Source of the DNA: Patescibacteria group bacterium
GTDB taxonomy: Bacteria; Patescibacteriota; Gracilibacteria; UBA1369; UBA12470
Assembly (NCBI GenBank): GCA_018816885.1
Contig: JAHIUS010000021.1
Coordinates: 39,092-103,091, forward strand
Direction: 5' to 3'
DNA length: 64,000 nucleotides
Shown one piece after another: positions 20,872 to 62,657 of this stretch. Both the position numbers and the translations under genes were made by a program. The number at the start of each line of letters is the position of its first letter. Within the stretch, counting starts at the first letter, position 1. The notes under the pieces are model-generated. The model was not told the origin of the DNA, ran no database searches, and worked only from the letters and a program-made list of their open reading frames with translations.

Positions 20872-20947
20872 AGTACCAAGTCTCAAGTACGAAGTACCCA
20901 GTGAGTGGAGTTTCCCCATGGCGGAGATAAACGCTTTCGCGAAACGG
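20872..20947 (+). repeat. Composite heptamer-array/TGGAG-hairpin element (hairpin interrupted by 18 nt)
   Basis: CAAGTAC-type units, then GTGGA GTTTC[18 nt]GCTTTCGCGAAAC GG. Confidence 0.75.
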
Positions 20948-21009
20948 ATTTTATATCCCTAAAAATCTCAGAGTGAGGCCGCAAGATCAGAACCTTCCAC
21001 TACAAAAAG

Positions 21010-21067
21010 CTGTTTTTGCGCAGCAAAAACTCCACTATTGAACATTGGTAATTGAAAATTAAACATT
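21010..21067 (-). repeat. Composite heptamer-array/TGGAG-hairpin element
   Basis: On -: AATGTTT AATTTTC AATTACC AATGTTC AATA GTGGA GTTTTTGC TGC GCAAAAAC AG. Confidence 0.75.
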
Positions 21068-22357
21068 CCCGAGCCCCCCCCCACTCTCATTCGCCTCCTT
21101 AACCATCTCCGCAACCTTCTTATATCCATGCTCAGGGATAAGTAGGGTAGCTTCAGCAAGACTGCCGTCATATAACTCGGCAATCCTTTCCTCATTGGCT
21201 CGAATCCCGGCAATACACTTTTCTCGCACCATCTCGAACCCGTTACCAAGAATCCGCACAGCCATAGTCAGATTAAACATAATCAAAGGAGCGTTCCAAT
21301 TAAGCTCGAACTCCCCGTTCTGAGCCGCGCAAGCAACAGTCTGATCAGCCCCGATAACCTGGGCGCAAATCATACTCATACATTCCGGGATCGACGGATT
21401 AATCTTACCCGGCATAATCGAAGAACCTGGTTGCGCATTAGGAAGAGTAATCTCCATTAGCCCTGCACGAGGTCCGCTGCTCATAAGTCGCAAATCGTCC
21501 ATAATTCTTCTCATTTCGATTGCCAAATTCCGCAAAGCACCGGATAGACGAGTGAAAGCCTGCATACTGTTATTGGTTGTTGTCAGATTCGGAGCCGCTT
21601 TCAGTTCGAGCCCTGTTAGATCGGAAAGCTCTTTCAAAACCTCTTCTTGAAAGTCCTCGTGAGCGTTTATGCCCGTTCCGACCGCCGTTGCTCCTATTCC
21701 GAGCTTTTTGAGCTCTGAGAAAGCCTGTTTGCATTCTTGGAGGCAGTTTTCGAGAGCCTGTCCGTAGGATGAAAACTCCTGCCCGAGCGTAATCGGTACC
21801 GCGTCTTGGAGGTGTGTTCTGCCAACCTTTTTTATGTGATTCCACTCTTTGGATTTTTTATTAAAAGCTTCCACCAAAGCTGCAAGTTCCTGCACAAAAA
21901 ACTTGTTCACAAACAGGAGTGCAAGACGAGTAGCGGTTGGAATAACATCATTAGAAGATTGCCCCTTATTGACATGGTCGTTCGGATGAATCGGATCATA
22001 AGTGCCTTTTTTAAATCCCAAGATCTCATTAGCCCTATTCGCAATAATCTCATTAGCATTCATATTGTAAGAAGTACCCGCACCTGCCTGGAAGACATCG
22101 AGAGAGAACTCATGATCGAACTTACCTTCAGAAAACTCCTCAGCAGCCTGAATAATAGCCTCCTTCTCGGGCAATCCCTCAAGACGAGCATTTGCTCGAG
22201 CAGCCGCAAGTTTAATGTATCCGAGCGCTTTGCGGAACTCTTCCGGAGCGGTCATCCCGCTAATCTGAAAATTTTGCGCTGCTCTGGCAGTAAAAGCTCC
22301 AAAGTAAGCATCTTTGGGAACCTCAACTTGACCGAGAGCATCTTCCTCAGTCCTCAT
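21059..22357 (-). CDS. Class II fumarase/aspartate ammonia-lyase family lyase
   Basis: GSSIMPGKINP signature, GRTHLQDA, QAGAGTSYNMN; AspA versus FumC not resolved. Confidence 0.92.
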   Translation of the reverse strand: MRTEEDALGQVEVPKDAYFGAFTARAAQNFQISGMTAPEEFRKALGYIKLAAARANARLEGLPEKEAIIQAAEEFSEGKFDHEFSLDVFQAGAGTSYNMNANEIIANRANEILGFKKGTYDPIHPNDHVNKGQSSNDVIPTATRLALLFVNKFFVQELAALVEAFNKKSKEWNHIKKVGRTHLQDAVPITLGQEFSSYGQALENCLQECKQAFSELKKLGIGATAVGTGINAHEDFQEEVLKELSDLTGLELKAAPNLTTTNNSMQAFTRLSGALRNLAIEMRRIMDDLRLMSSGPRAGLMEITLPNAQPGSSIMPGKINPSIPECMSMICAQVIGADQTVACAAQNGEFELNWNAPLIMFNLTMAVRILGNGFEMVREKCIAGIRANEERIAELYDGSLAEATLLIPEHGYKKVAEMVKEANESGGGLGNV

Positions 22358-22387
22358 GTATCGGAAAAATTAAAGACAAACGAGATT

Positions 22388-30386: not shown

Positions 30387-31076
30387 ATGAAACTTGGAAG
30401 AGCTCGCGAAATTAACAGTAGCCTACTCGTCATTGATAACGCCAACCTATCTGGAATTGTTAATGGTGAAGAAAACTCCGACCTCGCTCAACTTGATGGG
30501 GCAGACGGTTTAAGATTTAGAGAAAAAGATGGAATGACTGAAATAAGACCAGTTGTAGCAGAAGCATTAAGAAGAATGGAAGAACTGGATATTTCATTAG
30601 CATCTCGTGACAGAACAGAGGTTATAGAAGATCAATATAGTGATTGGATACTCAAAGCATTAGATTTAATGGAGAGAACGGATGTCCAGTCGCTTCTTAA
30701 AAAAGGCCCGGATCCGGAAAATAATACAAGAACTAAACATGTATCACACCAAATTCAATTAGCCCATCATCTACGAGTCAAAAGGAGGTTAAGCGCCTTT
30801 TTCAGATGGAAAATAGCAATAAATTTAAAAATGAATAAATGGATGCAAGGATTGGCAGGTTTTCCGGAATTTAGCCAAATCGAAGAGTTGCGAGATTTCC
30901 CTGAATTTAGATCAACGGATACTCTGGAGGACATCAAGAAATTCGCAATAGAATGCTTGAAAGAAACAATGAAAGGGTCAGAAGAAGAGGTAGCATTTGC
31001 AGCAAAATGTATAGAATTAGGTTTCACCGAAATCGCGGAAATAACAGGTCTGTCATTGATGCATGCAGCGGAGTAA
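30387..31076 (+). CDS. Hypothetical protein
   Basis: 229-aa ORF filling the intergenic gap, A-rich upstream region. Confidence 0.65.
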   Translation: MKLGRAREINSSLLVIDNANLSGIVNGEENSDLAQLDGADGLRFREKDGMTEIRPVVAEALRRMEELDISLASRDRTEVIEDQYSDWILKALDLMERTDVQSLLKKGPDPENNTRTKHVSHQIQLAHHLRVKRRLSAFFRWKIAINLKMNKWMQGLAGFPEFSQIEELRDFPEFRSTDTLEDIKKFAIECLKETMKGSEEEVAFAAKCIELGFTEIAEITGLSLMHAAE

Positions 31077-31078
31077 TG

Positions 31079-31109
31079 AAGTCCCGAGCAGAAAACTTCG
31101 GGCTTTTAA
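31079..31109. terminator. Putative terminator between convergent genes
   Basis: AAGTCCCGAG-loop-TTCGGGCTTTT. Confidence 0.5.
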
Positions 31110-31161
31110 GCCTTGGGCAAATATTGTGCAATCCCATCGTCCCATTTGAAACATTCGAATT

Positions 31162-32526
31162 TCAAATTTCTTCCTCATATAGCACAGGTTCATCCGGATA
31201 ATCCCACCACCAAGACTGCATAACCTCGCTCGCCAAAGGCACAACAACATAATCATCGCTTCCGATAACAGGGAAAACATAGGCCGGAACATAAACCTCA
31301 AAACTTTCATAATCATCATAAACCCAGTGCTGCATATACTGCATAGAAGGAGTGTCCAGCTCAAGCACAGTGTTTTCATCATAAACCCAGTCATAACGAT
31401 ACCAGCCGTCAACACCGCCTTCTTCCGCAGCAGCCAAAATATCCTCAATACTCGCAGCTTCATAAGAAGAGCTTTCGTAAACATGAGATTTTATACCGTA
31501 AACATAAGACACCAGCATATCGGGAATATAAACGGTAGCCGTAATCCCCATCTTGCCACCCCACTCGGAATAGACATGCTTCCCATCGATTTCAAGAGGA
31601 TAAACAACATCCACATAATCAGGCACCCATCCATCATAGTAATAATATTCATCATCGTAATGATTGACCTCGGCTTCACCATGCCCCTGGAGAGAAATAC
31701 CGGTTTTATTGATAAAATCATCAGCCACGGCGATCAAAACATCATCAGGCGGCATGGAAGTCACGGACTCCCAATAATTCCACATATTGGGATCCCAATA
31801 ACTGATAGATATTTCACTATTTGCAAAGTCCGCATAGACCGAATAACCCTCTCCGGAAGGAGGTGAAAGCTGAATATTGGAAAGTTCAAAATCTCCAAGT
31901 TTAGAAAGATCCATAAGCCCGAAATCAATATCCGCAAACATACTTCCGAGCTGTTTAGACAGACTTGTATCTTTTTTTCTCTTCAAAACCTCTACCGAAT
32001 CGGCAGAAAATGTAAGCTCATCTCCAGCATAGGTGTAAGAGTAGTAGGGGTAATAGTAATCATCATAATAAGGTTCGATAGACGCATCTTCATCGGAAAC
32101 CGCAGCTTTTTCCTCAGAAATCATGCCTCCTCCTCGTCCCGCATCGGTACTCGACAAAGCCGCATCTTCCGCGGAAAACCCATCACCCGAAAGCGACCCA
32201 AAAGCATTTTCCGAGACAGATTCAATCTTAAACTCCCCAAAACTCACGATTGGCTTCTCCAGTCCGGCAAAATAAATAACCGGAACCATAATTACAGCGA
32301 AAACAGCCGCCCCCGCAAAAGCGAAAATCGGCCACTTAACCCGAGGCGCATCCTTTATCTCATCAATCCGCGCCCAAACCTTTTCCCTCAGCTCTGCCTT
32401 GAAGGATTCGCTCAGCTCAATATCGGGTTTAGCCACAAGCAGTTCCTTCAAGAGAACCTTCAGCACCTTCTCATGCTTTTTGAGCTCGGGATCGCTCGCA
32501 TACAGCTCTTCAAGTATTTTTTCCAT
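31162..32526 (-). CDS. Probable membrane anti-sigma factor with extracytoplasmic domain
   Basis: Directly follows the ECF sigma; short N-terminal domain (P..SESFKAELRE), TM helix, Tyr/acidic outer domain. Confidence 0.65.
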   Translation of the reverse strand: MEKILEELYASDPELKKHEKVLKVLLKELLVAKPDIELSESFKAELREKVWARIDEIKDAPRVKWPIFAFAGAAVFAVIMVPVIYFAGLEKPIVSFGEFKIESVSENAFGSLSGDGFSAEDAALSSTDAGRGGGMISEEKAAVSDEDASIEPYYDDYYYPYYSYTYAGDELTFSADSVEVLKRKKDTSLSKQLGSMFADIDFGLMDLSKLGDFELSNIQLSPPSGEGYSVYADFANSEISISYWDPNMWNYWESVTSMPPDDVLIAVADDFINKTGISLQGHGEAEVNHYDDEYYYYDGWVPDYVDVVYPLEIDGKHVYSEWGGKMGITATVYIPDMLVSYVYGIKSHVYESSSYEAASIEDILAAAEEGGVDGWYRYDWVYDENTVLELDTPSMQYMQHWVYDDYESFEVYVPAYVFPVIGSDDYVVVPLASEVMQSWWWDYPDEPVLYEEEI

Positions 32527-32530
32527 GATT

Positions 32531-33073
32531 TTATTTGATTAAAAAAATAAAAGATAAAATAAAAGTCAAAACGGTAATATGCTCCTGCAATTTCTTAACA
32601 GACCGTGACAAAATCATCTTGCAATTCGCCTCGCTCTTACCAATAATCTCGGCAATCTCCTTGAAACTTAAACCATCCCAAAGTCGCATAATAATAATCT
32701 CTTTCGCCTCAGGCTTCAGAATAGAAAGAGCTTCCTTAAACTTCTCAAAATCCAGCTTAATCGAAACCTCTTTTTCAATGTCTTCAGAGGAACTGACGGA
32801 AAAAGCCGCCTCCAGATCAACATGCTGCTTTTTACTCCTGTAAAAATCGGTCAAACTATTCCGCGCAATCCGATAAAGCCACCCTTGAAAAGATCCCTTC
32901 CCGGGACGGAAAGTATGGAACTTCTGAGCCGCCTTTAGAAAAGTCTGACTTGTAACCTCCTCGGAAGTGTTTTTATCCTGAGTCCGATAAAAAACGAAAT
33001 TATAGATCTTCGAAAAAAACTCATCATACATCTCGCCGAACTCCGAAAGATTTTGTGGGTTTTCATTCATCAT
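32531..33073 (-). CDS. ECF RNA polymerase sigma factor
   Basis: EEVTSQTFLKA, FQGWLYRIARN, GLSFKEIAEIIG HTH. Confidence 0.93.
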   Translation of the reverse strand: MMNENPQNLSEFGEMYDEFFSKIYNFVFYRTQDKNTSEEVTSQTFLKAAQKFHTFRPGKGSFQGWLYRIARNSLTDFYRSKKQHVDLEAAFSVSSSEDIEKEVSIKLDFEKFKEALSILKPEAKEIIIMRLWDGLSFKEIAEIIGKSEANCKMILSRSVKKLQEHITVLTFILSFIFLIK

Positions 33074-33084
33074 TCATCAATATA

Positions 33085-33110
33085 TACGGAAGTCACCGGA
33101 AAAAGTAACA
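33085..33110 (-). promoter_or_regulatory. Putative ECF autoregulatory promoter
   Basis: TGTTAC-N16-CGTA just upstream of the sigma gene, similar to the B. subtilis SigW-type TGAAAC-N16-CGTA. Confidence 0.55.
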
Positions 33111-33117
33111 GATTTCC

Positions 33118-33146
33118 TTGAAAAAACAGGAAAAACACTTTAAATT
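33118..33146 (+). promoter_or_regulatory. Putative sigma70 promoter of the tRNA-Gln locus
   Basis: TTGAAA-N17-TAAATT. Confidence 0.5.
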
Positions 33147-33166
33147 AACCGCGCAGTACAAGGTAA

Positions 33167-33243
33167 TGGGGCGTGGCCAATCGAAGATCCCGCCATGGCG
33201 GGAGTGGTAAGGCACTCCGCCAAGGCGGGGCATTCGGGGGTTC
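33167..33243 (+). pseudogene. Degenerate 5' copy of tRNA-Gln with palindromic insertions
   Basis: Matches tRNA nt 1-14, 15-26 and 41-55 exactly; 23-nt insert in the D-loop; anticodon arm replaced by a CCGCCAAGGCGG hairpin; ends in the T-loop. Confidence 0.85.
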
Positions 33244-33251
33244 AATAAGAT

Positions 33252-33516
33252 ATGTTTCATCTATATATATATATTACAAAGCGAAAAAGATAAGAGACTA
33301 TACATAGGTCAGACCAATAATTTGGAAGACAGATTGAAAAGACATAATACAGGTCAAGTAAAAGCAACTAGAAATAGAAAACCACTTAAGTTAATATATC
33401 ACAAGAAATATAAAAAAAGAGCTGAAGCAATGGAAATGGAAAAGTACCTTAAAAGATTGAAAGGCGGGAATGAGTTTAAAAGGCTCTTACATCAATGGGG
33501 CGTGGCCAAGTGGTAA
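33252..33516 (+). pseudogene. Small GIY-YIG endonuclease, frameshifted in a (TA)6 tract
   Basis: YILQS...LYIGQTNNLEDRLKRHN...AMEMEKYLK; the ATG at 33252 is out of frame; the stop lies inside the tRNA D-loop. Confidence 0.85.
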
Positions 33517-51449: not shown

Positions 51450-51563
51450 TTTGAAGGGTTGATTAGGATGCTGATTGTAACTTTTTTCCGTAAAAAGTCA
51501 ATGATTTAACTGGTGGCGGATGGTTTAAAGTGGATGGTATTTCTATATGCCCCATCTGCTATT

Positions 51564-53768
51564 TTACGCCACCGAACATGCCGAGTAGCTGCATTGAGGG
51601 CAGCTCATGCAACCCTCATGCATTATCAGTTTGCCCTCGCAATCGGGGCAGACACCTTCCTTCTTAATCTCTGCTTTTGATTTTTCAGAACTTTGTTTGA
51701 GTGATTTGTGTCGTCTTTGATCTTCTTCGATCTTCTTTTTGCCTTTGACTTTTCCGATGTTCAGAACCTGGTTGTCGCGGCTTCCGTCCCTGTAAACGGT
51801 TATTCCTTTACAGCCGAGTTTGTAGGCCGATTTGTAGGATTTTTCGATATCTTTGGTTGTTGCCAAGTGCGGGAAGTTTACGGTCTTCGATACGGCCGAA
51901 TCTATATGTTTCTGGAAAGCTGCTTGGGCTTTCACATGCCATTCCGGCGCGATGTCTTGGGCTGTTACGAATACTTTTCGTACTGAAGCTGGGATTGCTT
52001 CTATGTTTTGGACTGAACCGCTTTCCGCGATTTCTCGCATTAGATCTTGTGAGTAAAATCCTTTTTCTTTGGCGATCTGCTCAAAGTACTTGTTGGTGTA
52101 AACAAGCTCTGTGCCGTCCATTACGTTCTTGATGTATGAAATGGCGAAGTTTGGTTCGATTCCGCCCGATGCTTCTGCAATCATTCCGATTGTTCCTGTT
52201 GGAGCGATTGTTGTTTGGCAGGCGTTTCTGATTTTTATTCCTTTTTTCTCGTAATAACTTCCTTTCCAGCAAGGGAATACTCCTCTGTCTTTGGCCAGAT
52301 CTATCGATTTGTTTTCACATTCTGTTTTAAGGAATGACGTGATTTTGTCCGCCCACTCCAGACCTTCTTTTGAGTTGTAAGGGACTTTAAGTTGATAAAG
52401 AATATCACCGAATCCCATCAGTCCGAGGCCGACTTTTCTTGATGCGCGGCTGACTTCGGCGATCTTCGGGATCGGATATTTGTTCATATCGATCACATTA
52501 TCCAGGAAGTGGATAGATGAATGGATTGTTTCTCGGAATTTGTCCCAGTCGAGGTCTGAGTGGTCTGCGCGGATCATTCTGTTAAGATTGATTGAGCCCA
52601 GATTGCAGGATTCGTAACCCTTCAGAGGTTGTTCTCCGCACGGATTGGTGCTTTCTATCAATCCCGTGTGCGGGATTTTATCGGCTTTGTTGATTGTGTC
52701 GAGGAAAATTACTCCGGGATCGCCGTTTTTCCAGGCCATATCCAGGATAAGGTCGAATACATGGCGCGCCGGGAGTTTTTGGACAACTTGTCCGTCTCTT
52801 GGGTTCAAAAGTTCATAATCTTTGTTTTTATCCAAGGCTTCCATGAATTTATCCGTGATTCCGACAGATATGTTGAAGTTGGTAAGGGTTACCATGTCGG
52901 ATTTCATTGTGATGAAGTCTAAGATATCCGGATGATCGACTCTAAGGATTCCCATATTGGCTCCGCGTCTTTTGCCTCCTTGTTTGATTACATCTGTCGC
53001 GACATCAAATACTCGCATGAATGAGATAGGTCCGGAGGATACGCCGGTTGTGGATTTAACGAGGTCGTTTCTTGGCCTTAATCGTGAGAATGAAAAGCCG
53101 GTTCCTCCTCCACTTTTGTGAATTAATGCGGCATTTTTCACGGTATCAAAGATGTTTTCCATCGAATCTTCTACCGGAAGAACGAAACATGCCGAGAGCT
53201 GCTGTATATCTGTTCCTGCGTTCATCAGGGTAGGGGAGTTGGGCATGAACTCCAGTTGTGTCATAAGTTTGTAGAATTTCTCTTCCGTTTCTTGGGCATT
53301 CCCTTTTTTGTAGTTCTTGTCTGCTTCGGCAATGTTTTTGGCGACTCTGCGGAATAGGTCTTCGGGAGACTCCATTATTCTGTTGTTTTCGTCTTTTAAC
53401 AGATAGCGGCGTTCCAAAACTTGAAGTGCGTTCAGGCTTAGTGGGAGGTTGGTGGTTTTTCCCATTATTGCCTTCTGCTGCTCTCTGATGTCTGCTCGTT
53501 TTTGTCTGTAAAGAATGTAAGCTTTTGCCGTTTTGCCGTACTGGCGTTCTATCAGCATGTTCTCGACGAGGTCTTGGACCTGTTCGACTGTTGGGTAGTT
53601 GTCTCCTTTGAACAAGATGTTGAGGAGGTTCTCGATTTCGTTTGAAATTTCCTGTGCGATTGTGCGGTCTTTTCCTCCGACCGATTGAGCGGATTTCCAA
53701 ATCGCTTCAGCGATTTTTTCGCGATCGAAATTGGCAGCGGTTCCGTCGCGTTTGATGATTTTTTTCAT
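51564..53768 (-). CDS. nrdJ: Class II (B12-dependent) ribonucleotide reductase with ATP cone
   Basis: IIKRDG ATP cone, PNSPTLMNAG, QQLSACFV, TNPCGEQ, TIAPTGT, C-terminal CxxC motifs. Confidence 0.95.
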   Translation of the reverse strand: MKKIIKRDGTAANFDREKIAEAIWKSAQSVGGKDRTIAQEISNEIENLLNILFKGDNYPTVEQVQDLVENMLIERQYGKTAKAYILYRQKRADIREQQKAIMGKTTNLPLSLNALQVLERRYLLKDENNRIMESPEDLFRRVAKNIAEADKNYKKGNAQETEEKFYKLMTQLEFMPNSPTLMNAGTDIQQLSACFVLPVEDSMENIFDTVKNAALIHKSGGGTGFSFSRLRPRNDLVKSTTGVSSGPISFMRVFDVATDVIKQGGKRRGANMGILRVDHPDILDFITMKSDMVTLTNFNISVGITDKFMEALDKNKDYELLNPRDGQVVQKLPARHVFDLILDMAWKNGDPGVIFLDTINKADKIPHTGLIESTNPCGEQPLKGYESCNLGSINLNRMIRADHSDLDWDKFRETIHSSIHFLDNVIDMNKYPIPKIAEVSRASRKVGLGLMGFGDILYQLKVPYNSKEGLEWADKITSFLKTECENKSIDLAKDRGVFPCWKGSYYEKKGIKIRNACQTTIAPTGTIGMIAEASGGIEPNFAISYIKNVMDGTELVYTNKYFEQIAKEKGFYSQDLMREIAESGSVQNIEAIPASVRKVFVTAQDIAPEWHVKAQAAFQKHIDSAVSKTVNFPHLATTKDIEKSYKSAYKLGCKGITVYRDGSRDNQVLNIGKVKGKKKIEEDQRRHKSLKQSSEKSKAEIKKEGVCPDCEGKLIMHEGCMSCPQCSYSACSVA

Positions 53769-53985
53769 GGTAGAGTAGTGTTAGTAGTCAGTAATTAGTA
53801 ATGAGTGGATGGAGTTTCCGCTAACGCGGAAACGGCTTGATTGTTAGTGGGGCTGGCCTTGCGGCCGCCCTGTGGAGTTTCCGCTGTGGAGCCCTGCGGG
53901 CAGGTTAGTTTTTTGTGCCGGCCTAACGGCCGCACTGGCGGAAACGGCTTGATTGGTAGTGGGGCTGGCCATTGGCCGCCCTTTT
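53769..53985 (+). repeat. Mosaic of heptamer array and duplicated/nested hairpin units (BIME-like)
   Basis: Heptamers, then TGGA GTTTCCGC TAAC GCGGAAAC GG; about 45-nt direct repeat 53826-53871/53938-53982. Confidence 0.8.
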
Positions 53986-54136
53986 TTAGTTTGTTTTTTT
54001 GGGGACTCAAGAAATCAGAGGGTCTTTTCAAATTTATAGACTTTGAAGTCTTGGCCTGACTTGTTTTTTCGAGCGGTTTCTGTTCTGATTGGCTTCCTTT
54101 TGCGCTTAAACGGTCTTGTGTCCAAGTTTTTGCATA

Positions 54137-54184
54137 CCACTACATATTGTGGTTCTTGCTCATGTATACTACAATATATTGAAG
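54137..54184. promoter_or_regulatory. Tandem NrdR boxes upstream of nrdJ
   Basis: CCACTACATATTGTGG (54137-54152) and CTACAATATATTGAAG (54169-54184), starts 32 bp apart, match the acaCwAtATaTwGtgt consensus. Confidence 0.8.
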
Positions 54185-54353
54185 TTTTAAGGGTAACTCA
54201 AGGCGCTTTTTGAAAACCAAATTTACAATATTTGAAAATATTTTAGCGTTATATAAAAATAGGTTGCAAAATCCTTTAATGAGAACTATTATCAATAGCG
54301 CCTTGTATTCTTTAACCCCTTTACGATATGGACGGCAAAGGAGGATGCGGATG

Positions 54354-55502
54354 TTAAGTTCCGCCTGAAGATGCCTTCTCATTGTGAGAGGGTGTCTTTT
54401 TTTTGTTCTCGTATATGCTCAAAGCTATTACCGCCAGTATTGTTGTGAGATAGGGGAGGAGCTGATTGTATAGAGGTTTTTTTTCATGTTCGATTGAAAT
54501 TGTTTCCGGTTGGTTGTTCACGGTTTCTATCCTGTAATCGATTATTTCGTTTTCGCCGTTCAGGGTTTCGAATGTTAGAGAGATGTTTTGTTCGGGAGTG
54601 AAGATTGTGTTTGCAAGTTCTTGCGACAGGTTTAGATTGGATGTTTGGAATGAAAAAATCTGCTCGTTTACGGTTATTTCGAGAGTGTTTGATTCAAAGG
54701 TTTCTATAAGTCCTTCTGTTGCGAAGATTGTTGCATTTAGCGTTCCGGGGGTAGGGGTGTGCCATTGCCATGATTCTTCCGTTTCGTTGGTTAGAAGGTT
54801 TATTATGGTAATGAGTTGGTATGAAACTCCTTCCTTTGTTGATTCGTAAGGGACTTCGGATAGTATGTTGCCGTCCGGGGTCAAAATTCGGGCTGAGTCT
54901 GATGAGTTGTTCAAGGCGATTCCCGATTCACTTCTGAATATTATTGTGCGTTCTCCCGGTTCGAGTTTCGTTGTCGGGATTTCCCAAGGGGAGCTTCCGT
55001 CTTCGTTGTCGTCCAGCAATAGGCCTTCGAGGTTGATTTCCGCCTGTCCGGTGTTTTTTATCTCTATCCATTCTTCTGTCGATTCGTTTTCTTCGGGGTT
55101 GGGCATTACTTCTGTTATTTGTACTGTTGTTGGGAAAATTTGATACTCTTTGATTTCTCCGAGTGGATAAGTCTCTCCTTCCAGAGCGTTTTCGATTTTC
55201 ATTGTGTCGATTGGTTTCGGATTGGAAGACAGTATTCGAATTTCGTCATAGTCGTTGTTGATTGAAATTTTTGTTTCCGAAGAAAAAAGCTGAAGTTCTC
55301 CGAGAGGGGCTATTGTATAGCTTTCGAGGTTGAAAGGGGGGCTTTCGCCTTGCTGATCGTCCAGAAACAGGCCTGTGAGTTCTTGTCTGTAGTCGGATTC
55401 GTTTTTGAGAATGATATACTCTTTATTCAAATCCGCGCCTTCCGGATTGGGAAGAACCTCGAATATTTTTATCGCTATTAGTAAGGGAATTATTTTGAAC
55501 AT
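54354..55502 (-). CDS. Lamin-tail-domain protein (two LTDs) with C-terminal TM
   Basis: Repeated I.EV.PNP...E(Y/W)I.(L/I)KN...L.GL.LDD motif. Confidence 0.8.
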   Translation of the reverse strand: MFKIIPLLIAIKIFEVLPNPEGADLNKEYIILKNESDYRQELTGLFLDDQQGESPPFNLESYTIAPLGELQLFSSETKISINNDYDEIRILSSNPKPIDTMKIENALEGETYPLGEIKEYQIFPTTVQITEVMPNPEENESTEEWIEIKNTGQAEINLEGLLLDDNEDGSSPWEIPTTKLEPGERTIIFRSESGIALNNSSDSARILTPDGNILSEVPYESTKEGVSYQLITIINLLTNETEESWQWHTPTPGTLNATIFATEGLIETFESNTLEITVNEQIFSFQTSNLNLSQELANTIFTPEQNISLTFETLNGENEIIDYRIETVNNQPETISIEHEKKPLYNQLLPYLTTILAVIALSIYENKKKTPSHNEKASSGGT

Positions 55503-55563
55503 CCCAGGTACGATAGCGCAGGGACATTAAATTTAGATTAAAAAAAAGGGGGGCAACTTTAAA

Positions 55564-55626
55564 AAAGAACCAAGAACCAAGATCCAAGATCCAAGATCCA
55601 AGATCCAAGATCCAAGATCCAAGAAC
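55564..55626. repeat. Near-perfect heptamer array
   Basis: AAAGAAC CAAGAAC (CAAGATC)x6 CAAGAAC. Confidence 0.95.
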
Positions 55627-55658
55627 ATGAGTGCTGCAGAATCATTTTGACAAAGCCC

Positions 55659-58196
55659 CTAGCTTCCTCCAATCTCCACAACGAAATCTCCTTTATAAAT
55701 ATCGTACACAAGTATTTTTGAATGATTGAAAATATAGTCAAAGGCTTCCATGTATTTTTCCGCCATTGTTCCTTCGAGATCGGAGCTTATCGAGTAGGTG
55801 TTGTAGTCGAAAATCATGTATTTGAATCCTCCGGCCTGCAATCTTCTTTCCAGCAGATCCATATCTTTTTCCAGGTATAGGCAGTGGAAGTCGTCGAGAT
55901 ATTGGTCGTTAAAAGTTCTTGAGAAGCTGTTTTCTATGAAGTATGGAAGAGTGGTTCCAACTCTCCATATCAGTCCATCGTTCTTTTCGAAAATATCGCT
56001 TGCCGCAAGGGCGTTCGGATATATTGAGCTGACGGTTTCTTCTTCTGTTATTGTGTCTGAAATATACAGCAGCAATGGGTGTTTTCCGGAAGAAGCTATC
56101 CTGAGTGTGAAGAAAGGGATAATTAATATAAGTACCAGTATTGCGGCAAAGATTTTCCCATATTTTTTATGGGTTTTCTCTAAGTTATCCAAAAGTCCGG
56201 ATACATACATTGCAAGAGGCAGAAGGCCCGGAAGTCCGTACCAAATAATTCCGTTTCCGGATACAAGCCAGAATATCCAATAACTTACTCCGAACACTAT
56301 GACCGGCATCCATTTTTTCGATTTTTTTCTCACGAATAGGAGTAATGCGGGGATTAAGGCTAGGAATATCCATCCTATATCTACATATTTTCCGTAAACT
56401 CCTTGGTCGTTCATGGTTAGATGCCAGGGTAGGGTTAGGATTCTTTTTGCCGGGTGGTCATAGCCCAAATATCTGTCCAGCTCTTCTATGGTACCTGTGC
56501 CTTTGCACTCTTCATGGTTTATAGCGAGGTCTCCTTCGAATGCGTCGTAATCCATTTTCGGTTGCGGGTTCTCTCCCAAAATCAGGGCTCGGGTTGACAG
56601 AGATCCTGTGTCCATGAAGTTGCCGATTGCCCATGGAGAGAATGCCATTCCTGCGAATAGCGCGAATATGACGATCGTTTTTAGGCCATGGAAGTTCTTT
56701 TCTTTAATTATAGAAATCAAAAGTAGAATTGCTGCGATAACGACCAGGATTACTCCCGTTATTTGAGGGGCTGAGAAGTTGTGCCCCATATTAATGTTGT
56801 TTGTGATCGCGAGTGTTCCAAGTCCGAATAGTATTCCCGCTGCCGTTCCTTTTGTCTTGTAATATTTGTTTAAGAGAATTGTTATCATTGCGAAAATCAA
56901 GATCATTGCGGTGATTTTTATTCCGAACGCGAATCCTGCCAGAAGTCCCGCTATTATGATGTACACTGATTGTTCTTTTTTGTCTTTTGAGGTTATTCCC
57001 AGGTATAAACTCAAGAATGAGATCGTGCTTATGGCGAAGCTTGCCAGGTCTACTTTGTTATCTTCTATGATGTGAAATGTGAATAGCGGAGTTGCGTATA
57101 TTGATGCTGCGGCTATGAGTGAATATTTTTTTGATAAAAATTTTCTTGAAACAATATAGATTGCGGCCAGCGCTATTGCTGCCGGGAAAAAAGAGGCCAG
57201 GAATAGGGTTGCGGTTGTCCAGTTGAACATGGTGAAGCCGAGGCTCATGAAGAGCTCCCAGTAGTAGTTGCCACCCATTCTTATAAGTCCTCCCGCTTCG
57301 AATATTTCTTTGGCGAGGTTTACATATCGGTTGAGACCGTCGTATCCTCTCGGAGTAGGGGAGATTCCGTCTATGAAGTTTAGAAGTACTGTCAGTCCGA
57401 GGATTATCAGTATTGGCAGAATTAAGCTTTTCGGGTTGATTTTGAGTTCTTGTTTGAAATCTTTGAGTTTTTTGAGAATTTGAAGGACGGATTTATAGCT
57501 TATTGCAGATAAAAGTATGAATGTTGCCCAGCTTGTTGCTTGGTTGAGTATTCCGAATTTTCCGAGGAAAAAGCAGGTTAATATGATTGCGAAAAGGCCC
57601 AGCCCAAGTGAGATGAGTGCGTTTTCCGGGTTGAGTTTTGCTTTTTTGAGTAGGAGTTTTAGGATTGAGAAACCTGTTGATACGGCGGTTAATGTCAGGA
57701 AGAACATTATCAGAAAAAGTCCTATTGTTTTGGTGATTAACCCCTTTTGGATGTCTGCGATTTTCGGGGTGATGAAGTTTTTGTGGAACTCTGCAGGCAG
57801 CCATTTGAAAGTGTCTTTGGTTTTTTGCATGGAGGAGTTGTGGACGACTATTGAATCTGCTCCTTCAGGTATTTCCGAGTAATCATGGACTTCTTGAATT
57901 TCTATTGCCAGAGTTTCCGGGTTGTATGAGTAGATTATGTCTCCTCCCGTGTTGTATGATGGGTCTGTTACCAAAAACATGATGTTGCCAAGTATGAGTA
58001 TGCCTATAAGTGCGGCTGTCAGTATCCGAGGCAAGGTGATTCGGATTTTTTTTAAGAAGAAAAAGGCGGCATAGATCAAAACAGGAATTGACAGGTAAAG
58101 TATTTGGATGATTCCGGGTGTGTAGTACCAGTGATTTTTGAAGTAGAAAAAAACTACTAGCCCTATCCAGGATACTGCGAGTATTTTTTTTGGCAT
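55659..58196 (-). CDS. Large polytopic GT-C (ArnT/PMT-like) glycosyltransferase
   Basis: Many TM helices; luminal PRGYDGLNRY motif, DNKVDL, AGFAFGIK. Confidence 0.7.
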   Translation of the reverse strand: MPKKILAVSWIGLVVFFYFKNHWYYTPGIIQILYLSIPVLIYAAFFFLKKIRITLPRILTAALIGILILGNIMFLVTDPSYNTGGDIIYSYNPETLAIEIQEVHDYSEIPEGADSIVVHNSSMQKTKDTFKWLPAEFHKNFITPKIADIQKGLITKTIGLFLIMFFLTLTAVSTGFSILKLLLKKAKLNPENALISLGLGLFAIILTCFFLGKFGILNQATSWATFILLSAISYKSVLQILKKLKDFKQELKINPKSLILPILIILGLTVLLNFIDGISPTPRGYDGLNRYVNLAKEIFEAGGLIRMGGNYYWELFMSLGFTMFNWTTATLFLASFFPAAIALAAIYIVSRKFLSKKYSLIAAASIYATPLFTFHIIEDNKVDLASFAISTISFLSLYLGITSKDKKEQSVYIIIAGLLAGFAFGIKITAMILIFAMITILLNKYYKTKGTAAGILFGLGTLAITNNINMGHNFSAPQITGVILVVIAAILLLISIIKEKNFHGLKTIVIFALFAGMAFSPWAIGNFMDTGSLSTRALILGENPQPKMDYDAFEGDLAINHEECKGTGTIEELDRYLGYDHPAKRILTLPWHLTMNDQGVYGKYVDIGWIFLALIPALLLFVRKKSKKWMPVIVFGVSYWIFWLVSGNGIIWYGLPGLLPLAMYVSGLLDNLEKTHKKYGKIFAAILVLILIIPFFTLRIASSGKHPLLLYISDTITEEETVSSIYPNALAASDIFEKNDGLIWRVGTTLPYFIENSFSRTFNDQYLDDFHCLYLEKDMDLLERRLQAGGFKYMIFDYNTYSISSDLEGTMAEKYMEAFDYIFNHSKILVYDIYKGDFVVEIGGS

Positions 58197-58202
58197 TTAT
58201 TT

Positions 58203-60833
58203 TTATGTGTTAGGGATTTTTGCTACCAAGTGACCTCTATAGCGATCAGGGACAATTAATTCCGTGTGATTAAGCACATAGTCTATGGCTGCCTCATATT
58301 TGTTTAGAAGAGTGTCTTGGCTGCCGCTTTGCAGGCTGAATGTGTAGTAGTCGAATATGATGTAGCCGTATCCGAGAGCTTTTAATCTTTCCGTAAGAAG
58401 ATCGGGGTCTCTTTCTACATAAAGACAGTTTAGGTCGTCGATGTATTGGTCGTTGTAAGTTCTACTGAAGTTGTCCGGGATATAGTAGTTGAGGGTTGTT
58501 CCTATTTTCCAGATAAAGTCGTACTGTCCGTCTTGATCTTCTCTGAAGATTTCTTCAACAAGGTGTGCGTACGGGAATATTGCGAGTTCGGCTTGATCCG
58601 CTGTGATTGTATCTGTTGCGTAAAGCAGAAGCGGTGATTTGCCGGCCATGCTTAATCTGAAGACGAGTGCGCCTATTATGAACAGGATAATTACCGTGTT
58701 TGTCAGGTATTTCGAGAATTTATCTTTGTTAAGTTCATAGTTGTCCATGAGTCCTGCGATTGCTATGGTTAGCGCTATGAATCCCGGTAGCCCGTACCAT
58801 ATGATTCCGTTGCTTGTTATTGTCCAAAATATCCAATAAGGTACTCCGAATACCAGAAGGATTTGCCATTTCCGGCTTGGTTTTTTAAAAGGGATGAAGA
58901 GTAGGAAGGCCGGGATTAGAGCGAGAAACGCCCATTTGATGTCGATATACATTCCTTGTGTGCCTTGGTCGTTCATGGTTGTGTGCCATGGCAGGGTAAG
59001 GTATTTCTGGAAAAACGGGCTGTATCCGAGGTACCTGTCCAGTTCTTCCGTTGTTCCCGTGGCTTCGGTGCATAGCGTTCTGTCCAATCCGTACTCTTCT
59101 TCCATTAGTTGATAGTTCATTTCCGGTTGAGGGTGGTCGCCGAACAGCAAGCCTCTTGAACTTATCGAGTGACTTTCCGAGAAGTTTTTGATGAGCCACG
59201 GTGAGAATGCCAGTACTGCGAGCAGAGCGAATGTCGTTGTGTATTTGAGGCCGTTAATACTTTTACTTTTAAAGATTTCCAATGCGATGATTCCGATAGA
59301 AAATATCAGCAATCCCGTCCCTGCAATTTTGAATGCCGGGTTGGTCGGGTCTATATCTGTTCCCATATTTATGTTTCCCGAAAGCACGAGCAGTCCCGTT
59401 CCGAAAAACAGGCCCGATAACGCACCTTTCCATTTATAGGCTGCGAATAGGAGCATTGTGATGCCCGTGAGTATTAGCATCAGGCTTGTGAGTTTTATAC
59501 CGAATGCGAATCCGGCCATAAGTCCGGCTACTGTTATATAAGACATTTTCTCTCTTTTGCTTTCTGATTTTATCCCGAGATAAAGGCTTAAAAAGGCTAT
59601 GATCGAGATAGCGAAATTCCCAAGATCGATCTTGTTGTCTTCTACTCCGTGAAACAGGAATAGAGGGGTTAGATAAAGTGTCGCTGTACCGAATAGTGCG
59701 CTTTTTGCGGATGCGAATTTTTTTATCACAAAATATAAGGCGAAAAGACATATTGTTGCGGGGAAGAATGATGCCAGGAACAGGGTTGCGGTTGTCCAGT
59801 TGAACATGGTGAAGCCGAGGCTCATGAAGAGCTCCCAGTAGTAGTTGCCGCCCATTCTTATGAGTCCTCCTTCTTCAAAAATTCTTTTGGCTATGTTGAC
59901 ATACTGGTTAAGTCCGTCCCATCCTCTCGGGGCGGGGGAGATGTTGTCTATGAAGTTCATGCTCAAAAAAAGACCTATCGCCAAGATCATAAGTAAGTTG
60001 ATGTTGAGCATTTTTGTTTTGTACTCATATTTGAATGAGAACAGGGATTTTAAGATTTTTATTAAAGATTTGTGGCTGATTGCCAGCAGTATTATGAAAA
60101 GCCCCCATGTTCCGTATATGTTCAGTAAGTTTATCGTGCCAAGAAGGAAAGAAAATAGGGCTATGGCGAAGAGTCCGAGTCCCAGTGAAACCAATATGTT
60201 ATCCGAGGATAGGGGTGGATTTTTTTTGTTCTGCAGTTTTTTTAATGCTGAAAATCCGAAAGAGATTGCAGTTAATGTGATTAATCCCATGATTAGCATC
60301 ATTGCCGCTATTTTCGTGATTAACCCATATTCCGTATTGAATGTTTTTGGCAGGATGAATAACGGTTTTAATTCTTCCGGCATCCAGTCTGAAAAGGCTT
60401 CATGTATGTCTTTTAATGTAGAGTTATTCCCGGCTATCAGTTGTGTGTTTGCTGTGAATTCCGATGGGTCCGAGAGTTGTTTGAGATCTGCTATTCCTGT
60501 TGAGGCGTCATATTCGTATACCAAGTCGTCGCCCGTGTAGAACGAGGGATCTCTTATTATCAGGGCGCAATTTCCTGTTATCAGTGTTAATAAAAATATT
60601 GCGGCCAGGATTTTTTTGAATGTGAGGGTTATTTTTATCTCTGATTTGCCTTTTTCAAACCATATATATAGGCAGTAGCACGCGTAAAATAACGGGATAA
60701 GGAGTACATATAAAAGCCAGCCCGACGCTTCGGGGAGGCTGCCCGCGTAATAGGCGTGATTTTTGTAGAAAAAATATATGACAATTGAGATCCACGATAC
60801 GGCAAGGAGATTTTTTGTGATTTTTGCGTGCAT
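58203..60833 (-). CDS. Large polytopic GT-C (ArnT/PMT-like) glycosyltransferase, tandem paralog
   Basis: Colinear with the neighbouring gene; PRGWDGLNQY, DNKIDL, AGFAFGIK. Confidence 0.7.
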   Translation of the reverse strand: MHAKITKNLLAVSWISIVIYFFYKNHAYYAGSLPEASGWLLYVLLIPLFYACYCLYIWFEKGKSEIKITLTFKKILAAIFLLTLITGNCALIIRDPSFYTGDDLVYEYDASTGIADLKQLSDPSEFTANTQLIAGNNSTLKDIHEAFSDWMPEELKPLFILPKTFNTEYGLITKIAAMMLIMGLITLTAISFGFSALKKLQNKKNPPLSSDNILVSLGLGLFAIALFSFLLGTINLLNIYGTWGLFIILLAISHKSLIKILKSLFSFKYEYKTKMLNINLLMILAIGLFLSMNFIDNISPAPRGWDGLNQYVNIAKRIFEEGGLIRMGGNYYWELFMSLGFTMFNWTTATLFLASFFPATICLFALYFVIKKFASAKSALFGTATLYLTPLFLFHGVEDNKIDLGNFAISIIAFLSLYLGIKSESKREKMSYITVAGLMAGFAFGIKLTSLMLILTGITMLLFAAYKWKGALSGLFFGTGLLVLSGNINMGTDIDPTNPAFKIAGTGLLIFSIGIIALEIFKSKSINGLKYTTTFALLAVLAFSPWLIKNFSESHSISSRGLLFGDHPQPEMNYQLMEEEYGLDRTLCTEATGTTEELDRYLGYSPFFQKYLTLPWHTTMNDQGTQGMYIDIKWAFLALIPAFLLFIPFKKPSRKWQILLVFGVPYWIFWTITSNGIIWYGLPGFIALTIAIAGLMDNYELNKDKFSKYLTNTVIILFIIGALVFRLSMAGKSPLLLYATDTITADQAELAIFPYAHLVEEIFREDQDGQYDFIWKIGTTLNYYIPDNFSRTYNDQYIDDLNCLYVERDPDLLTERLKALGYGYIIFDYYTFSLQSGSQDTLLNKYEAAIDYVLNHTELIVPDRYRGHLVAKIPNT

Positions 60834-61065
60834 GATTAGGGTTTTATGTGTTTTGTTTCAGGTTGAACTATATTTGTTTTTGTCCCGATTGACAATTGTA
60901 ATTTCCTGAGTTAAATTTCTGTTGTAATTATTTGTATTTAAGTCTTCTCGGATTGTAGATAAGAATAAGTGGCAGAGTGAATTTCAATTCATTTTTAAAT
61001 AAAAAGAACTAGGTTTAAAATTGATCTCCATATCTGGATCCGGAAGGTGCTAACCTGAAATTATC

Positions 61066-62595
61066 ATGAATACCAGTTTGATTGTCCTGCTTATTTTTGC
61101 GGGTCTGGCTCTCGGAGGAGGGGTAGGTTTTTTCATAAGAAATAACCAAAAGAAAGAGGAGGAAAGGAAGGCGGAAGATGAAAAGAATCGTATTTTACAG
61201 GAGGCGAACTCTAAGGTTAAGGAGATGCTTTTTGAGGCTCGAAATGATGCACTCAAGGTACAGGAGGAGGCGAAAAAGGAGGAAAGAGAGAAAAGAATAA
61301 AGCTGCAGGCTATCGAGGAGAGGCTTGTTAAGAAGGAGGATGTTTTGGATCAGAAGATGGATGCTTCGGAGAAACTTAAGGAAGATTTGGAGAATAAAGT
61401 TTCTTCCGTAAAACAACTTAAGCTGGAGGTTCAGGCTATTTGCGAGCAACAGAAGGGTCAGCTTGAGAAGGTTGCTAATTTGTCCAAGGATGAGGCCAGG
61501 GAGCTTTTACTCAAAAAAGTTGAGGAGGAGTATAAGGATGAAATTGTTGAGCATATTAAGAAATTGGAGATTTCTATGAGAGAGGAAGCGGAAGTTAAGG
61601 CGAAGCATGCTATTGCGGATGCTATTCAGAAATATGCCGCCGAGACCGCCGTCGAGTCGACAGCTACTCTTGTTGCTCTTCCGAATGATGAGATGAAAGG
61701 TCGGATTATCGGTCGTGAGGGGCGGAATATTAACGCTTTTGAGCAAATTACAGGTGTGGATGTGATTGTTGACGATACTCCCGGGTCGATTGTTATTAGC
61801 GGTTTTGATCTTGTGAGGCGGTATGTTGCTAAGATTGCTCTTGAAAGGCTGATCGAGGATGGGCGAATTCATCCCGCTCGTATCGAAGAGATGGTTCAGA
61901 GGGTTAAAGGAGAGGTTAATGTTCTTATTAAGGAGCTTGGTGAAAGAGCTGCCGTTGAAACCGGAGTTATCGGTCTTCCCACTAATCTTGTTAAAATTCT
62001 TGGGCGGCTTAAGTTCAGGATCAGTTATGGACAAAATGTTCTTAAACATTCTATGGAGGTTGCTTTTCTTGCCGGTCATTTGGCCGTCGAGCTTGGTGCA
62101 GATGTTTCTATCTGTAAAAAGGCCGGATTACTGCATGATATCGGTAAAGCTGTGGATCACGAAATTCAAGGTAAACATGCCGCTATCGGGCGTGATATTC
62201 TTAAGAAATTCGGAGTTTCCGATGATGTTATTCATTGTGTTGAAGCGCATGAAGGAGATATTCCAGCCGATAGCATTGAGGCCAAAATCGTTCAGGCCGC
62301 TAACCTGATATCTATCGCTCGTCCCGGAGCTGATAAGGACAATCTTGATAACTTCTTGAATCGTCTTGAAGAGATCGAGAACTTATCCAATAGCTTCGAA
62401 GGAGTTAGGAAGTCTTACGCTATTCAAGCCGGGCGCGAAGTTCGCGTGTTCGTTGATCCTAAACAGGTTGATGATCTTCAGTCTATCAAACTTTCTCACG
62501 ATATTGCTCGCAAAATCGAACATGATCTCAAGTATCCCGGACAGATTAAGGTCGAGGTTGTGAGGGAAATGCGGGAGGAGGCGTTTGCAGAGTAG
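61066..62595 (+). CDS. rny: Ribonuclease Y
   Basis: N-terminal TM, coiled coil, KH domain MKGRIIGREGRNI, HD motif LLHDIGK, AIQAGREVRV. Confidence 0.97.
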   Translation: MNTSLIVLLIFAGLALGGGVGFFIRNNQKKEEERKAEDEKNRILQEANSKVKEMLFEARNDALKVQEEAKKEEREKRIKLQAIEERLVKKEDVLDQKMDASEKLKEDLENKVSSVKQLKLEVQAICEQQKGQLEKVANLSKDEARELLLKKVEEEYKDEIVEHIKKLEISMREEAEVKAKHAIADAIQKYAAETAVESTATLVALPNDEMKGRIIGREGRNINAFEQITGVDVIVDDTPGSIVISGFDLVRRYVAKIALERLIEDGRIHPARIEEMVQRVKGEVNVLIKELGERAAVETGVIGLPTNLVKILGRLKFRISYGQNVLKHSMEVAFLAGHLAVELGADVSICKKAGLLHDIGKAVDHEIQGKHAAIGRDILKKFGVSDDVIHCVEAHEGDIPADSIEAKIVQAANLISIARPGADKDNLDNFLNRLEEIENLSNSFEGVRKSYAIQAGREVRVFVDPKQVDDLQSIKLSHDIARKIEHDLKYPGQIKVEVVREMREEAFAE

Positions 62596-62598
62596 GTT

Positions 62599-62657
62599 TT
62601 AGATACAAGACATAAGATATAAGACTCAAGAAGATGGTGTTTTGCTGTGCAAAACAG
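62599..62657 (+). repeat. Composite heptamer-array/hairpin element
   Basis: TTAGATA CAAGACA TAAGATA TAAGACT CAAGAAG ATGGT GTTTTGC TGT GCAAAAC AG. Confidence 0.8.

Follow-up and report, generated by a model that had tools for sequence, protein, structure and literature searches.

Small palindromic repeats phased with seven-nucleotide arrays and oriented with the G-rich strand in a very small bacterial genome: a possible REP-like family

What kind of element places a short hairpin at the end of an array of seven-nucleotide repeats, again and again, between the genes of a very small bacterial genome? Repetitive extragenic palindromic (REP) sequences and heptamer simple repeats have both long been known. 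To our knowledge, the origin of either kind has been settled only where a REP-associated tyrosine transposase (RAYT) is present, and why 7-nt units are in excess in prokaryotes has never been explained. Both kinds meet in a 64,000-nt stretch of DNA (hereafter the window) from a groundwater bacterium of the Patescibacteria group (assembly GCA_018816885.1, contig JAHIUS010000021.1; C52:39092-103091 of genome G000, which comprises 1.26 Mb in 66 contigs at 43% G+C). An earlier note on the window had described a composite of a degenerate period-7 array, a short junction and a hairpin. All five full composites that it listed could be read directly in the sequence, four on the plus strand (20872-20947, 42106-42163, 53769-53835 and 62601-62657) and one on the minus strand (21012-21067), and their anatomy was as claimed: 4–6 degenerate 7-nt units, (A/G)TGG(A/T), a 7–8-bp stem of the form GTTT-Y-N-GC / GC-N-R-AAAC with a 3–4-nt loop, and GG. 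A bare hairpin was likewise found at 49373-49390, and a nested one, placed near 53872 by the note, at 53877-53945, where the loop holds about 53 nt of extra GC-rich hairpins; hairpin 20910-20945 is also nested. Our tentative answer is that these copies belong to a family of small dispersed DNA repeats akin to REPs and bacterial interspersed mosaic elements (BIMEs), specific to one lineage and locked to the replication strand.

The element is not limited to the loci listed in the note. An exact-stem scan of G000 returned 127 palindromes, 108 of them with a G-rich 5′ foot. We aligned 57 hairpin copies picked for perfect stems (alignment A1), built a covariance model from them (R1) and scanned the genome at a cut-off of E ≤ 0.01, which gave at least 117 copies, a lower bound (150 candidates were scored). 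Seven of the 117 lay inside open reading frame (ORF) calls, which were our own crude ones (1236 ORFs, 90% coverage), and elements occupy about 1 in 10 intergenic spacers. The unit is a perfect palindrome of 17–21 nt (GTTT-Y-N-GC, loop, GC-N-R-AAAC) with two different feet. On the 5′ side, T, G, G and T stood at positions −4 to −1 in 93, 88, 100 and 85% of 112 copies; on the 3′ side, the palindrome is followed by GGCTT and a T-rich stretch. The outer GTTT/AAAC was fixed in every copy, in four genera; G001, G002 and G003, used below, represent three sister genera that share one family with G000. A pattern written on the flanks only (GGTGTTT-N9-15-AAACGG) occurred 48 times in G000, and its reversed control 0 times. 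At least three further inner pairs formed in 43 of these 48 matches versus 3% of shuffled ones, and eight different inner triplets were represented. Because this pattern makes no demand on the inner stem, the compensatory stem changes noticed earlier are real and no artefact of stem selection; pair counts on A1 do reflect selection, since its copies were chosen for perfect stems. Read on the oriented strand, the stems held 20 G·T wobbles versus 4 A·C mismatches, indicating strand-specific pairing. An Rfam scan of the window at gathering thresholds returned one tRNA only; the elements match no known RNA family.

The hairpins are coupled to the arrays on one side and in a fixed register. Stringent tandem arrays in G000 numbered 96 with period 7 (73 of them intergenic) and at most 8 with any other period from 4 to 12. 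Mean lag-7 identity over 35 nt was 0.555 immediately 5′ of the hairpins; 3′ of them it fell to 0.281, and 3000 random intergenic windows gave 0.285. A lag-7 identity of at least 0.5 was reached 5′ of 79 of 116 hairpins, versus 8 of 117 on the 3′ side and 5.8% in the background, so the association of array and hairpin clearly exceeds that of ordinary intergenic DNA, and the note's first refuting condition fails. None of the 13 hairpins that form second or third modules of tandem clusters had a 5′ array. The arrays were also locked in phase: A, G and T each occurred in about 60% of cases at −10/−9/−8, −17/−16/−15, −24/−23/−22, −31/−30/−29 and −38/−37/−36 from the hairpin. Array ends with at least three in-phase AG followed by TGG(T/A) numbered 71, versus 16 on reversed sequence; an R1-detected hairpin followed directly in 44 of these 71, a nested or variant GTTT hairpin in 8 and other sequence in 19. 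The note had the heptamers differing between loci while period and polarity were kept. The units do vary (at least 40 canonical units in G000, the commonest in 8 of 96 arrays), but 41 of 96 exact-stem copies share an ordered AGT-type consensus. Many arrays in G000 stand without a hairpin, and some end at other GC-rich hairpins.

The orientation of the copies follows the replication strand and not the genes. Using skew in a ±5-kb window with the element masked, a local measure that partly mirrors gene strand, we found 103 of 117 copies on the G-rich strand, compared with only 56 of 117 on the gene-majority strand. Eleven of the 14 exceptions lay where |skew| was ≤0.082. GC skew in G000 reaches 0.35 per 5–10 kb (it is likewise extreme in G001), and G/T-rich 7- and 8-mers are 5–50 times commoner on one strand, coding DNA included; on several large contigs, genes show no preference for the G-rich strand. 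On contig C46, all 20 copies were on the plus strand, while 71% of the coding DNA was on the minus strand. Within the window, the skew changes sign near 32–34 kb: left of this point the clear copies are minus-strand, right of it plus-strand. The nested copy 20872-20947 (plus) sits where skew is low. G001 behaved in the same way, with 19 plus copies and 1 minus copy on C1 under positive skew, 6 of 6 minus on C2, and 8 minus on C3 under negative skew, turning plus in the last 8 kb. Since dnaA lies on the G-rich strand in both genera, this strand is, by the usual rule, the leading one; the oriented element, which lies on it, then matches in sequence the template of lagging-strand synthesis, which is single-stranded at the fork. 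The G000 assembly is fragmented, and its origin and terminus are unplaced.

Gene arrangement gave no such order. Classed by the gene ends next to the array side and next to the 3′ side, 42 copies were start/stop, 27 stop/stop, 22 stop/start and 10 start/start; nine further copies met contig edges, and the seven already mentioned lay in ORFs. Among the 110 placed copies, the array side thus faced a stop codon, and with it a co-oriented upstream gene, 53 times and a start codon 52 times. Only the oriented strand has a T-tract after the hairpin (T at +4 to +9: 97, 88, 54, 58, 75 and 64%), and this tract was no richer with a co-oriented upstream gene than without one (5.0 versus 5.1 T of 8, p=0.38). 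Because orientation tracks the G-rich strand and not the gene strand, the elements are not ordinary terminators or promoters, and the note's alternative of terminators tied to gene orientation does not hold. It is well supported that the element works as DNA and is tied to replication, and the match between hairpin direction and the direction of chromosome copying suggests that the element arises or spreads during DNA replication.

The family is confined almost entirely to close relatives. R1 matched at least 121 sites in G001, at least 40 in G002 and at least 20 in G003. Scanning the order at E ≤ 1e-4 returned matches in 9 of 151 genomes: G000, 6 of the 7 other genomes of its family, and 2 of 143 elsewhere with 1–3 matches each; some sister genera of the family held 0 to 2 copies only. 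G001 showed the same architecture with other heptamer units. There, 31 of 49 hairpins in 393 kb had a 5′ array, and the array units nearest the junction resembled the junction most. The spacer between the IF-2B-family and CitMHS transporter genes carries an array, TGG(T/A) and a hairpin in both G000 and G001, with different stems, loops and heptamers; in G003, the same spacer has an array and the conserved distal flank and no hairpin. In the leader of the ribonucleotide reductase (RNR) gene, G000 has three modules, G003 has a variant hairpin, and G001 has arrays that run to TGGT and then directly into T-rich sequence. Five relatives share a conserved promoter-like block with paired AT-rich palindromes in this leader, which we take to be NrdR-box-like. 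At a single site, therefore, heptamer units can be fully turned over between genera while the period and the junction persist, and the alignments of orthologous sites showed what appear to be filled and empty forms, with the flanking TGGT and T/A-rich sequence kept.

Larger units are also shared among loci. In multi-module clusters, a hairpin is followed by one to three more modules, each with a GC-rich hairpin, TGTGGT and a second GTTT hairpin. All modules lay on the same strand in direct orientation in 11 of the 11 clusters of two or three modules in G000, among which the module order of 53769-53981 recurs. The stretches of about 55 nt between tandem hairpins are themselves repeated, both within clusters and across loci; a CRISPR array was rejected because these stretches are not unique spacers. 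An integron attC site, considered for its GTT/AAC ends, was rejected on arrangement. Dispersed copies in G000 were 81–95% identical over 72–185 nt, with a shared 5′ border and a varying 3′ extent. Additionally, seven copies carry a mini hairpin, CCCC..GGGG followed by ATAAA, nested in the main hairpin at a constant position (window 20910-20945 and C18:21000, C31:1815, C35, C42:32277, C46:102994 and C64 of G000). One paralogous trio has a 22-nt mini hairpin in two copies and lacks it in the third (C46:54239), so that the mini hairpin looks like a nested insertion of a still smaller element.

How could such a family arise? Our preferred reading, which we hold as possible and not as established, is a small REP/BIME-like palindromic insert. 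It would sit behind the terminal TGGT of an array prone to slippage and act at the replication fork, on DNA that is single-stranded there. The palindrome, very small and non-autonomous, would fold in the lagging-strand template while this is single-stranded. It would be inserted, or copied by template switching, directly after TGGT at the array end, on the model of IS200/IS605-type elements, which insert 3′ of a fixed tetranucleotide. The array would be maintained and remodelled in place by 7-nt replication slippage, and such slippage could explain why unit sequence differs by locus and genus while period, polarity and junction stay the same. Where a neighbouring gene points the opposite way, the G-poor complement of the array may serve as a leader without a Shine-Dalgarno (SD) sequence, a side effect that is tolerated or secondarily used. 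Several features point this way, if tentatively: the asymmetric invariant feet, GTTT/AAAC ends that are fixed across four genera, multi-hairpin modules shared among copies, the existence of both filled and empty sites, and a spread limited to one family. A rather unlikely extension is that one replication-fork-coupled process in these ultra-small, strand-asymmetric genomes, either a single-strand DNA enzyme or a property of a minimal replisome, both plants or keeps palindromes in the lagging-strand template and builds in-register arrays on the origin-proximal side.

Several observations weigh against an inserted element. Clean empty sites are few and may be deletions, and the polarity may stem from the arrays, of which 45 of 64 were polar in a looser call. 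No target-site duplications were seen, nor any near-identical young copies other than duplicates at contig ends. Array type showed no association with the variant of either the stem or the 3′ flank (p about 0.2). Array and hairpin are therefore not simply co-mobilised, and a joint movement of the two was rejected on this ground. The contigs of two independent DNA sequencing runs were identical across five elements, so no live activity was seen. The search for an enzyme was no more favourable. A Pfam Y1_Tnp search of G001 to G004 gave no match at E ≤ 0.01, though G001 has the most copies; three of these four relatives carry 20 to more than 121 copies. The sole Y1_Tnp match in G000 (C6:14210-14560, locus L007 1477-1905; 142 aa, E 4.5e-38) is an ordinary IS200-type tnpA flanked by its own palindromes, which are unrelated to the repeat, and the element is not at its flanks. 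Fifteen ORFs beside 9 of the 11 multi-module clusters were housekeeping genes or of unknown function (among the cluster neighbours are chorismate synthase, tRNA-guanine transglycosylase, sortase and transketolase), while other HUH, reverse-transcriptase and GIY-YIG families were left unsearched across the relatives. Accordingly, of the note's proposal of a recurrent REP-like, non-autonomous mobile element, the covarying hairpin with its 5′-foot tetranucleotide TGGT stands, and a cognate enzyme is missing; the note had found none in the window, and none was found genome-wide either among the Y1 search and the cluster-neighbour genes. Its other suggestion, an enzyme that would add 7-nt repeats next to the hairpin, is possible; slippage fits at least as well, because arrays occur without hairpins and units turn over fully between genera. 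Insertion that preserves the heptamer phase was also considered and is unsupported: the next TAG past the hairpin falls at +9 to +12 and not at one position.

Comparison with known systems places the family near REPs without making it one. Like REPs, BIMEs and REPINs (hairpin-forming REP doublets), the elements are short, highly repeated extragenic palindromes with covarying stems; as with REPs and BIMEs, they form mosaic clusters of tandem modules and are under-represented between divergent genes. REPs carry a conserved 5′-foot tetranucleotide, GTAG in E. coli, and the TGGT found here resembles it in form only (PMC3333891, in part). In contrast to REP-RAYT systems, the Y1_Tnp search revealed no RAYT and no transposase gene flanked by REPs. 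The repeats are direct, never REP plus inverted REP (11 of 11 clusters), and their perfect stems lack the mismatch that TnpA-REP needs (PMC3333891). Furthermore, unlike REPs, the elements keep to the replication strand in about 90% of copies and have a phase-locked heptamer array on one side. On the three features tested, RAYT, inverted doublets and stem mismatch, the family does not belong to REP-RAYT.

IS200/IS605 elements and the miniature elements derived from them offer other parallels, namely a hairpin in single-stranded DNA, a fixed 5′ sequence that is the target, no target duplication and insertion oriented to the lagging-strand template (PMC5027513, in part). They differ in that the end hairpins of the resident copy are not those of the element, the Y1_Tnp search matched no IS200/IS605 member in the repeat-carrying relatives searched, and there is a single palindrome of 17–21 nt here and not two different subterminal hairpins. 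Intergenic heptamer repeats have been described as TAACTGA in Beggiatoaceae, Cyanobacteria and Bacteroidetes (PMC4679880, in part), as GGGAATC in Xanthomonas and Nostoc (PMC4692102), and among the long simple sequence repeats of Mrazek 2007 as summarised in PMC4679880. These too are short 7-nt arrays, mostly intergenic and often by the start codons of SD-less genes; unlike our arrays, they have one unit per genome and no hairpin, whereas here many unit families share a common polar end motif and a palindrome. Our searches of the candidate phyla radiation (CPR) and Peregrinibacteria literature, within article texts and not supplements, found no description of such repeats, including in the sections of PMC4736985 that were covered. 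New here are the quantitative coupling and the phase lock, the TGGT junction where arrays end, the statistics on replication strand for two genera, the distribution at family level, and orthologous sites in filled and empty form.

A further parallel is cyanobacterial. Elhai et al. reportedly recognised in 2008 the small dispersed repeats (SDRs, 21–27 nt) of Nostoc as tiny hairpin-forming inserts, through filled and empty copies of other repeats. Some heptamer units of the cyanobacterial short tandemly repeated repetitive (STRR) sequences end in AGT. Both systems combine small hairpin inserts with genomes rich in intergenic tandem heptamers. They differ in phylum and sequence, and neither SDRs nor STRRs are known to be locked to the replication strand or phased with an array end.

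Might the composite instead be a scar of replication, formed in place without any transposition? According to this explanation, which we consider somewhat unlikely, the replisome halts at a stable perfect palindrome and the nascent leading strand, sliding back in 7-nt steps, forms an array on the origin-proximal side, while quasi-palindrome template switching keeps the arms complementary and similar copies result from convergence and gene conversion. Compensatory changes would then need no selection, since template switching keeps the arms perfect. Much of what is described above suits such a scar: the predominance of period 7 genome-wide (96 arrays versus at most 8 of other periods, many without a hairpin), arrays only on the fork-arrival side of the G-rich strand, complete replacement of units between genera at one site with period and junction kept, units that resemble the junction most when nearest to it, other GC-rich hairpins at which arrays also stop, array types that assort independently of stem types, and the absence of a cognate transposase in the Y1 search. 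Heptamers are also the commonest long simple repeats in prokaryotes, for which a polymerase-footprint explanation has been proposed (Mrazek 2007, cited from PMC4679880). However, a scar leaves unexplained the near-invariant asymmetric feet (TGGT at 85–100% on the 5′ side, GGCTT on the 3′ side), the GTTT/AAAC fixed in four genera together with the AGT-unit consensus of 41 of 96 copies, and the multi-hairpin modules of 72–185 nt at 81–95% identity. Nor does it account for the restriction to one family, when neighbouring families, some of similar genome size, lack the element.

Two further explanations assign the element a function for the host. In the one set in the transcript, the hairpin with its T-tail is a terminator or 3′-end stabiliser and the complement of the array a G-poor leader for SD-less genes; we regard this as improbable for the origin of the family, and such use of the element is probably secondary. 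The features of a Rho-independent terminator, a stem-loop and a T-tract, are present, and the stem can be extended to G(−3)–C(+3) with T following at +4 to +9. Spacers between divergent genes hold 10 of 101 placed copies compared with 17% of all intergenic spacers. An SD-like motif occurred in 15 of 500 leaders (upstream spacer ≥40 nt), and leaders contain 11–16% G. Given the rarity of SD motifs and this low G content, the array complement would be a suitable leader for the opposite gene, and 42 copies do place it directly before a start codon; TAACTGA heptamers just 5′ of start codons have been proposed as translational signals (PMC4679880, in part). Against this, co-direction with a terminated gene was lacking (53 stop versus 52 start), the array side faced a co-oriented upstream gene in just 53 of 110, the T-tract was no better with such a gene (p=0.38), and orientation tracked skew in 103 of 117 copies compared with genes in 56 of 117. 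The other strand has ACCACC and no U-tract after the hairpin, the stem is A/T-rich at its base, and RNA folding yields a mean energy of only about −7.7 kcal/mol. Still less probable, in our judgement, is a polar chromosome signal selected by the host, such as a Chi-like hotspot, a translocase-orienting word or a hairpin for lagging-strand priming or primosome assembly. In its favour, G-N-TGGTG at the junction looks like enterobacterial Chi, the copies are strand-polar in the way of Chi or of FtsK-orienting polar sequences (KOPS), and the strand that carries the hairpin is the single-stranded one at the fork. Additionally, a 1015-aa ORF with a C-terminal PDDEXK_1 nuclease domain (C22:4389-5135 of G000, locus L136) is possibly an AddA/AddB-type helicase-nuclease. 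Yet in 885 kb of coding DNA the junction words occurred at maximal-order Markov expectation (GGTGGTG 75 versus 70.9; GGTGGTGT 19 versus 19.2), so a Chi- or KOPS-like signal is unsupported, and their strand bias equalled that of any G/T-rich word. A RecC-family search of G000 gave no match, and sister genera with 0 to 2 copies would be odd for an essential signal.

The family offers a compact natural system for asking whether hairpins in the lagging-strand template seed heptamer slippage and whether a single-strand DNA enzyme moves 20-nt palindromes. Both kinds of repeat here form one phase-locked, replication-oriented unit in a minimal genome, without a recognisable transposase of its own and with filled and empty sites in sister genera. 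The element is also a cheap marker of replication direction in fragmented assemblies, and the repeats break CPR assemblies. Long perfect arrays end several contigs (C8 start, C18 end, C57 end and C36 end), with 13 to more than 18 units of AGTAAGG or AGTAAGA and, at the C36 end, about 6.5 units of GGGCATG; since contigs end within them, heptamer arrays limit assembly. An 8.6-unit AAGATCC array at window 55565-55624 likewise stops the contigs of three other public runs. On window 42051-62050, contigs of public runs (X2, X3 and X6 from DNA and X4 from an RNA library) showed no variant in array length or presence, with the reservation that contigs drop rare variants and carry neither RNA ends nor strand information, so that they bear on neither polymorphism nor transcription; those of X2 and X3 span the elements at 42106, 53769-53901 and 52991-55552 with no difference or gap, and the contigs of all runs stop at the AAGATCC array near 55552-55595. 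Flanking sequence from closer strains was sought in metagenome contigs with a 654-aa protein as the query, which gave none. The RNR protein as the query gave 80 loci, the best 79–81% identical and none of the same species or genus, with 0–3 stringent period-7 arrays per locus, too few for a comparison of densities.

We then describe the copies of the window from left to right. An extra copy, not listed in the note, lies on the minus strand at 11735-11766: R1 matched C52:50810-50857, that is window 11719-11766 (E 4.8e-6), and the imperfect hairpin is followed by plus-strand CACCACC 3 nt before the ATG of gene 11770-12699. The plus-strand array at 20872-20909 has AGT at 20872, 20879, 20886, 20893 and 20900 and ends in TGGA. 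It leads to the GTTT..AAAC hairpin at 20910-20947, in which the CCCC..GG-ATAAA mini hairpin is nested behind the first bases and which closes with a GG foot; R1 misses this copy. On the minus strand, the hairpin GTTTTTGC-GCA-GCAAAAAC at 21012-21030 (R1 match 20996-21043, E 1.7e-6) is joined at 21031-21067 to a GTGGA junction and an array of AATGTTC-type units in minus-strand reading, which abuts the stop codon of a fumarate-lyase-family gene (21059-22357). The array at 42106-42142 (plus; AGT at 42106, 42113, 42120, 42127 and 42134, then TGGA) begins 7 nt from the start codon of the opposite-strand IF-2B-family gene and is followed at 42143-42163 by GTTTTCGC-TTC-GCGAAAAC and a GG foot (plus; R1 match 42130-42177, E 2.8e-6). 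What appears to be an empty form is found on the plus strand at 48777-48815, where an array of TAGACTC/TAGATCA units reaches TGGT and then directly TTGATTATAG; both flanks are there (48802-48815) and the hairpin between them is absent. The bare plus-strand hairpin GTTTTGC-TGTC-GCAAAAC with its GGCTT foot (49373-49395) has no clear array and gave a partial R1 match (49371-49406, E 0.0024).

The most elaborate copy precedes the RNR gene of G000, where about 230 nt of repeat modules (53769-54000) lie upstream of the start codon. Its plus-strand array with TGGA (53769-53813) starts directly past the start codon of this opposite-strand gene. It is followed, all on the plus strand, by hairpin A1, GTTTCCGC-TAAC-GCGGAAAC, with foot and linker GGCTTGATTGTTAGTG (53814-53849; R1 match 53800-53849, E 1.4e-9), and by a second, GC-rich hairpin (GGGCTGGCC..GGCCGCCC) with the TGTGGA junction of the next module (53850-53876). 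Hairpin A2 (53877-53945) repeats the arms GTTTCCGC (53877-53884) and GCGGAAAC (53938-53945), with about 53 nt of GC-rich hairpins between them, and a foot and linker, GGCTTGATTGGTAGTG, together with a second GC-rich hairpin complete the cluster at 53946-53981. The last array, at 62601-62638 (plus; AGA at 62601, 62608, 62615, 62622 and 62629, then TGGT), begins 6 nt past the RNase Y stop codon and runs into GTTTTGC-TGT-GCAAAAC and AG at 62639-62657 (plus; R1 match 62625-62671, E 3.5e-7).

Other features of the window concern its skew and gene content. The stretch 31000-36000 holds the cumulative GC-skew minimum and a change of sign in AT skew, and it may mark an origin-type switch, the border of an inversion or a site of integration. 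It contains a tRNA (33496-33567), an ORF with a recombinase zinc-ribbon match (33487-34248), a gene for an extracytoplasmic function (ECF)-type sigma factor and a 413-nt spacer; dnaA is on contig C42 and not within this stretch. A short plus-strand ORF before the tRNA (33250-33486) resembles by eye a small GIY-YIG nuclease of the UPF0213 type and is a candidate only. The gene content of the window is of CPR type, with a type IV pilin with PKD repeats and PMT_2, lamin-tail and IF-2B family proteins. Two adjoining giant ORFs (1606 and 778 aa) with many PKD domains fill 13647-20817, the first of them with an N-terminal T4SS_pilin/TrbC match.

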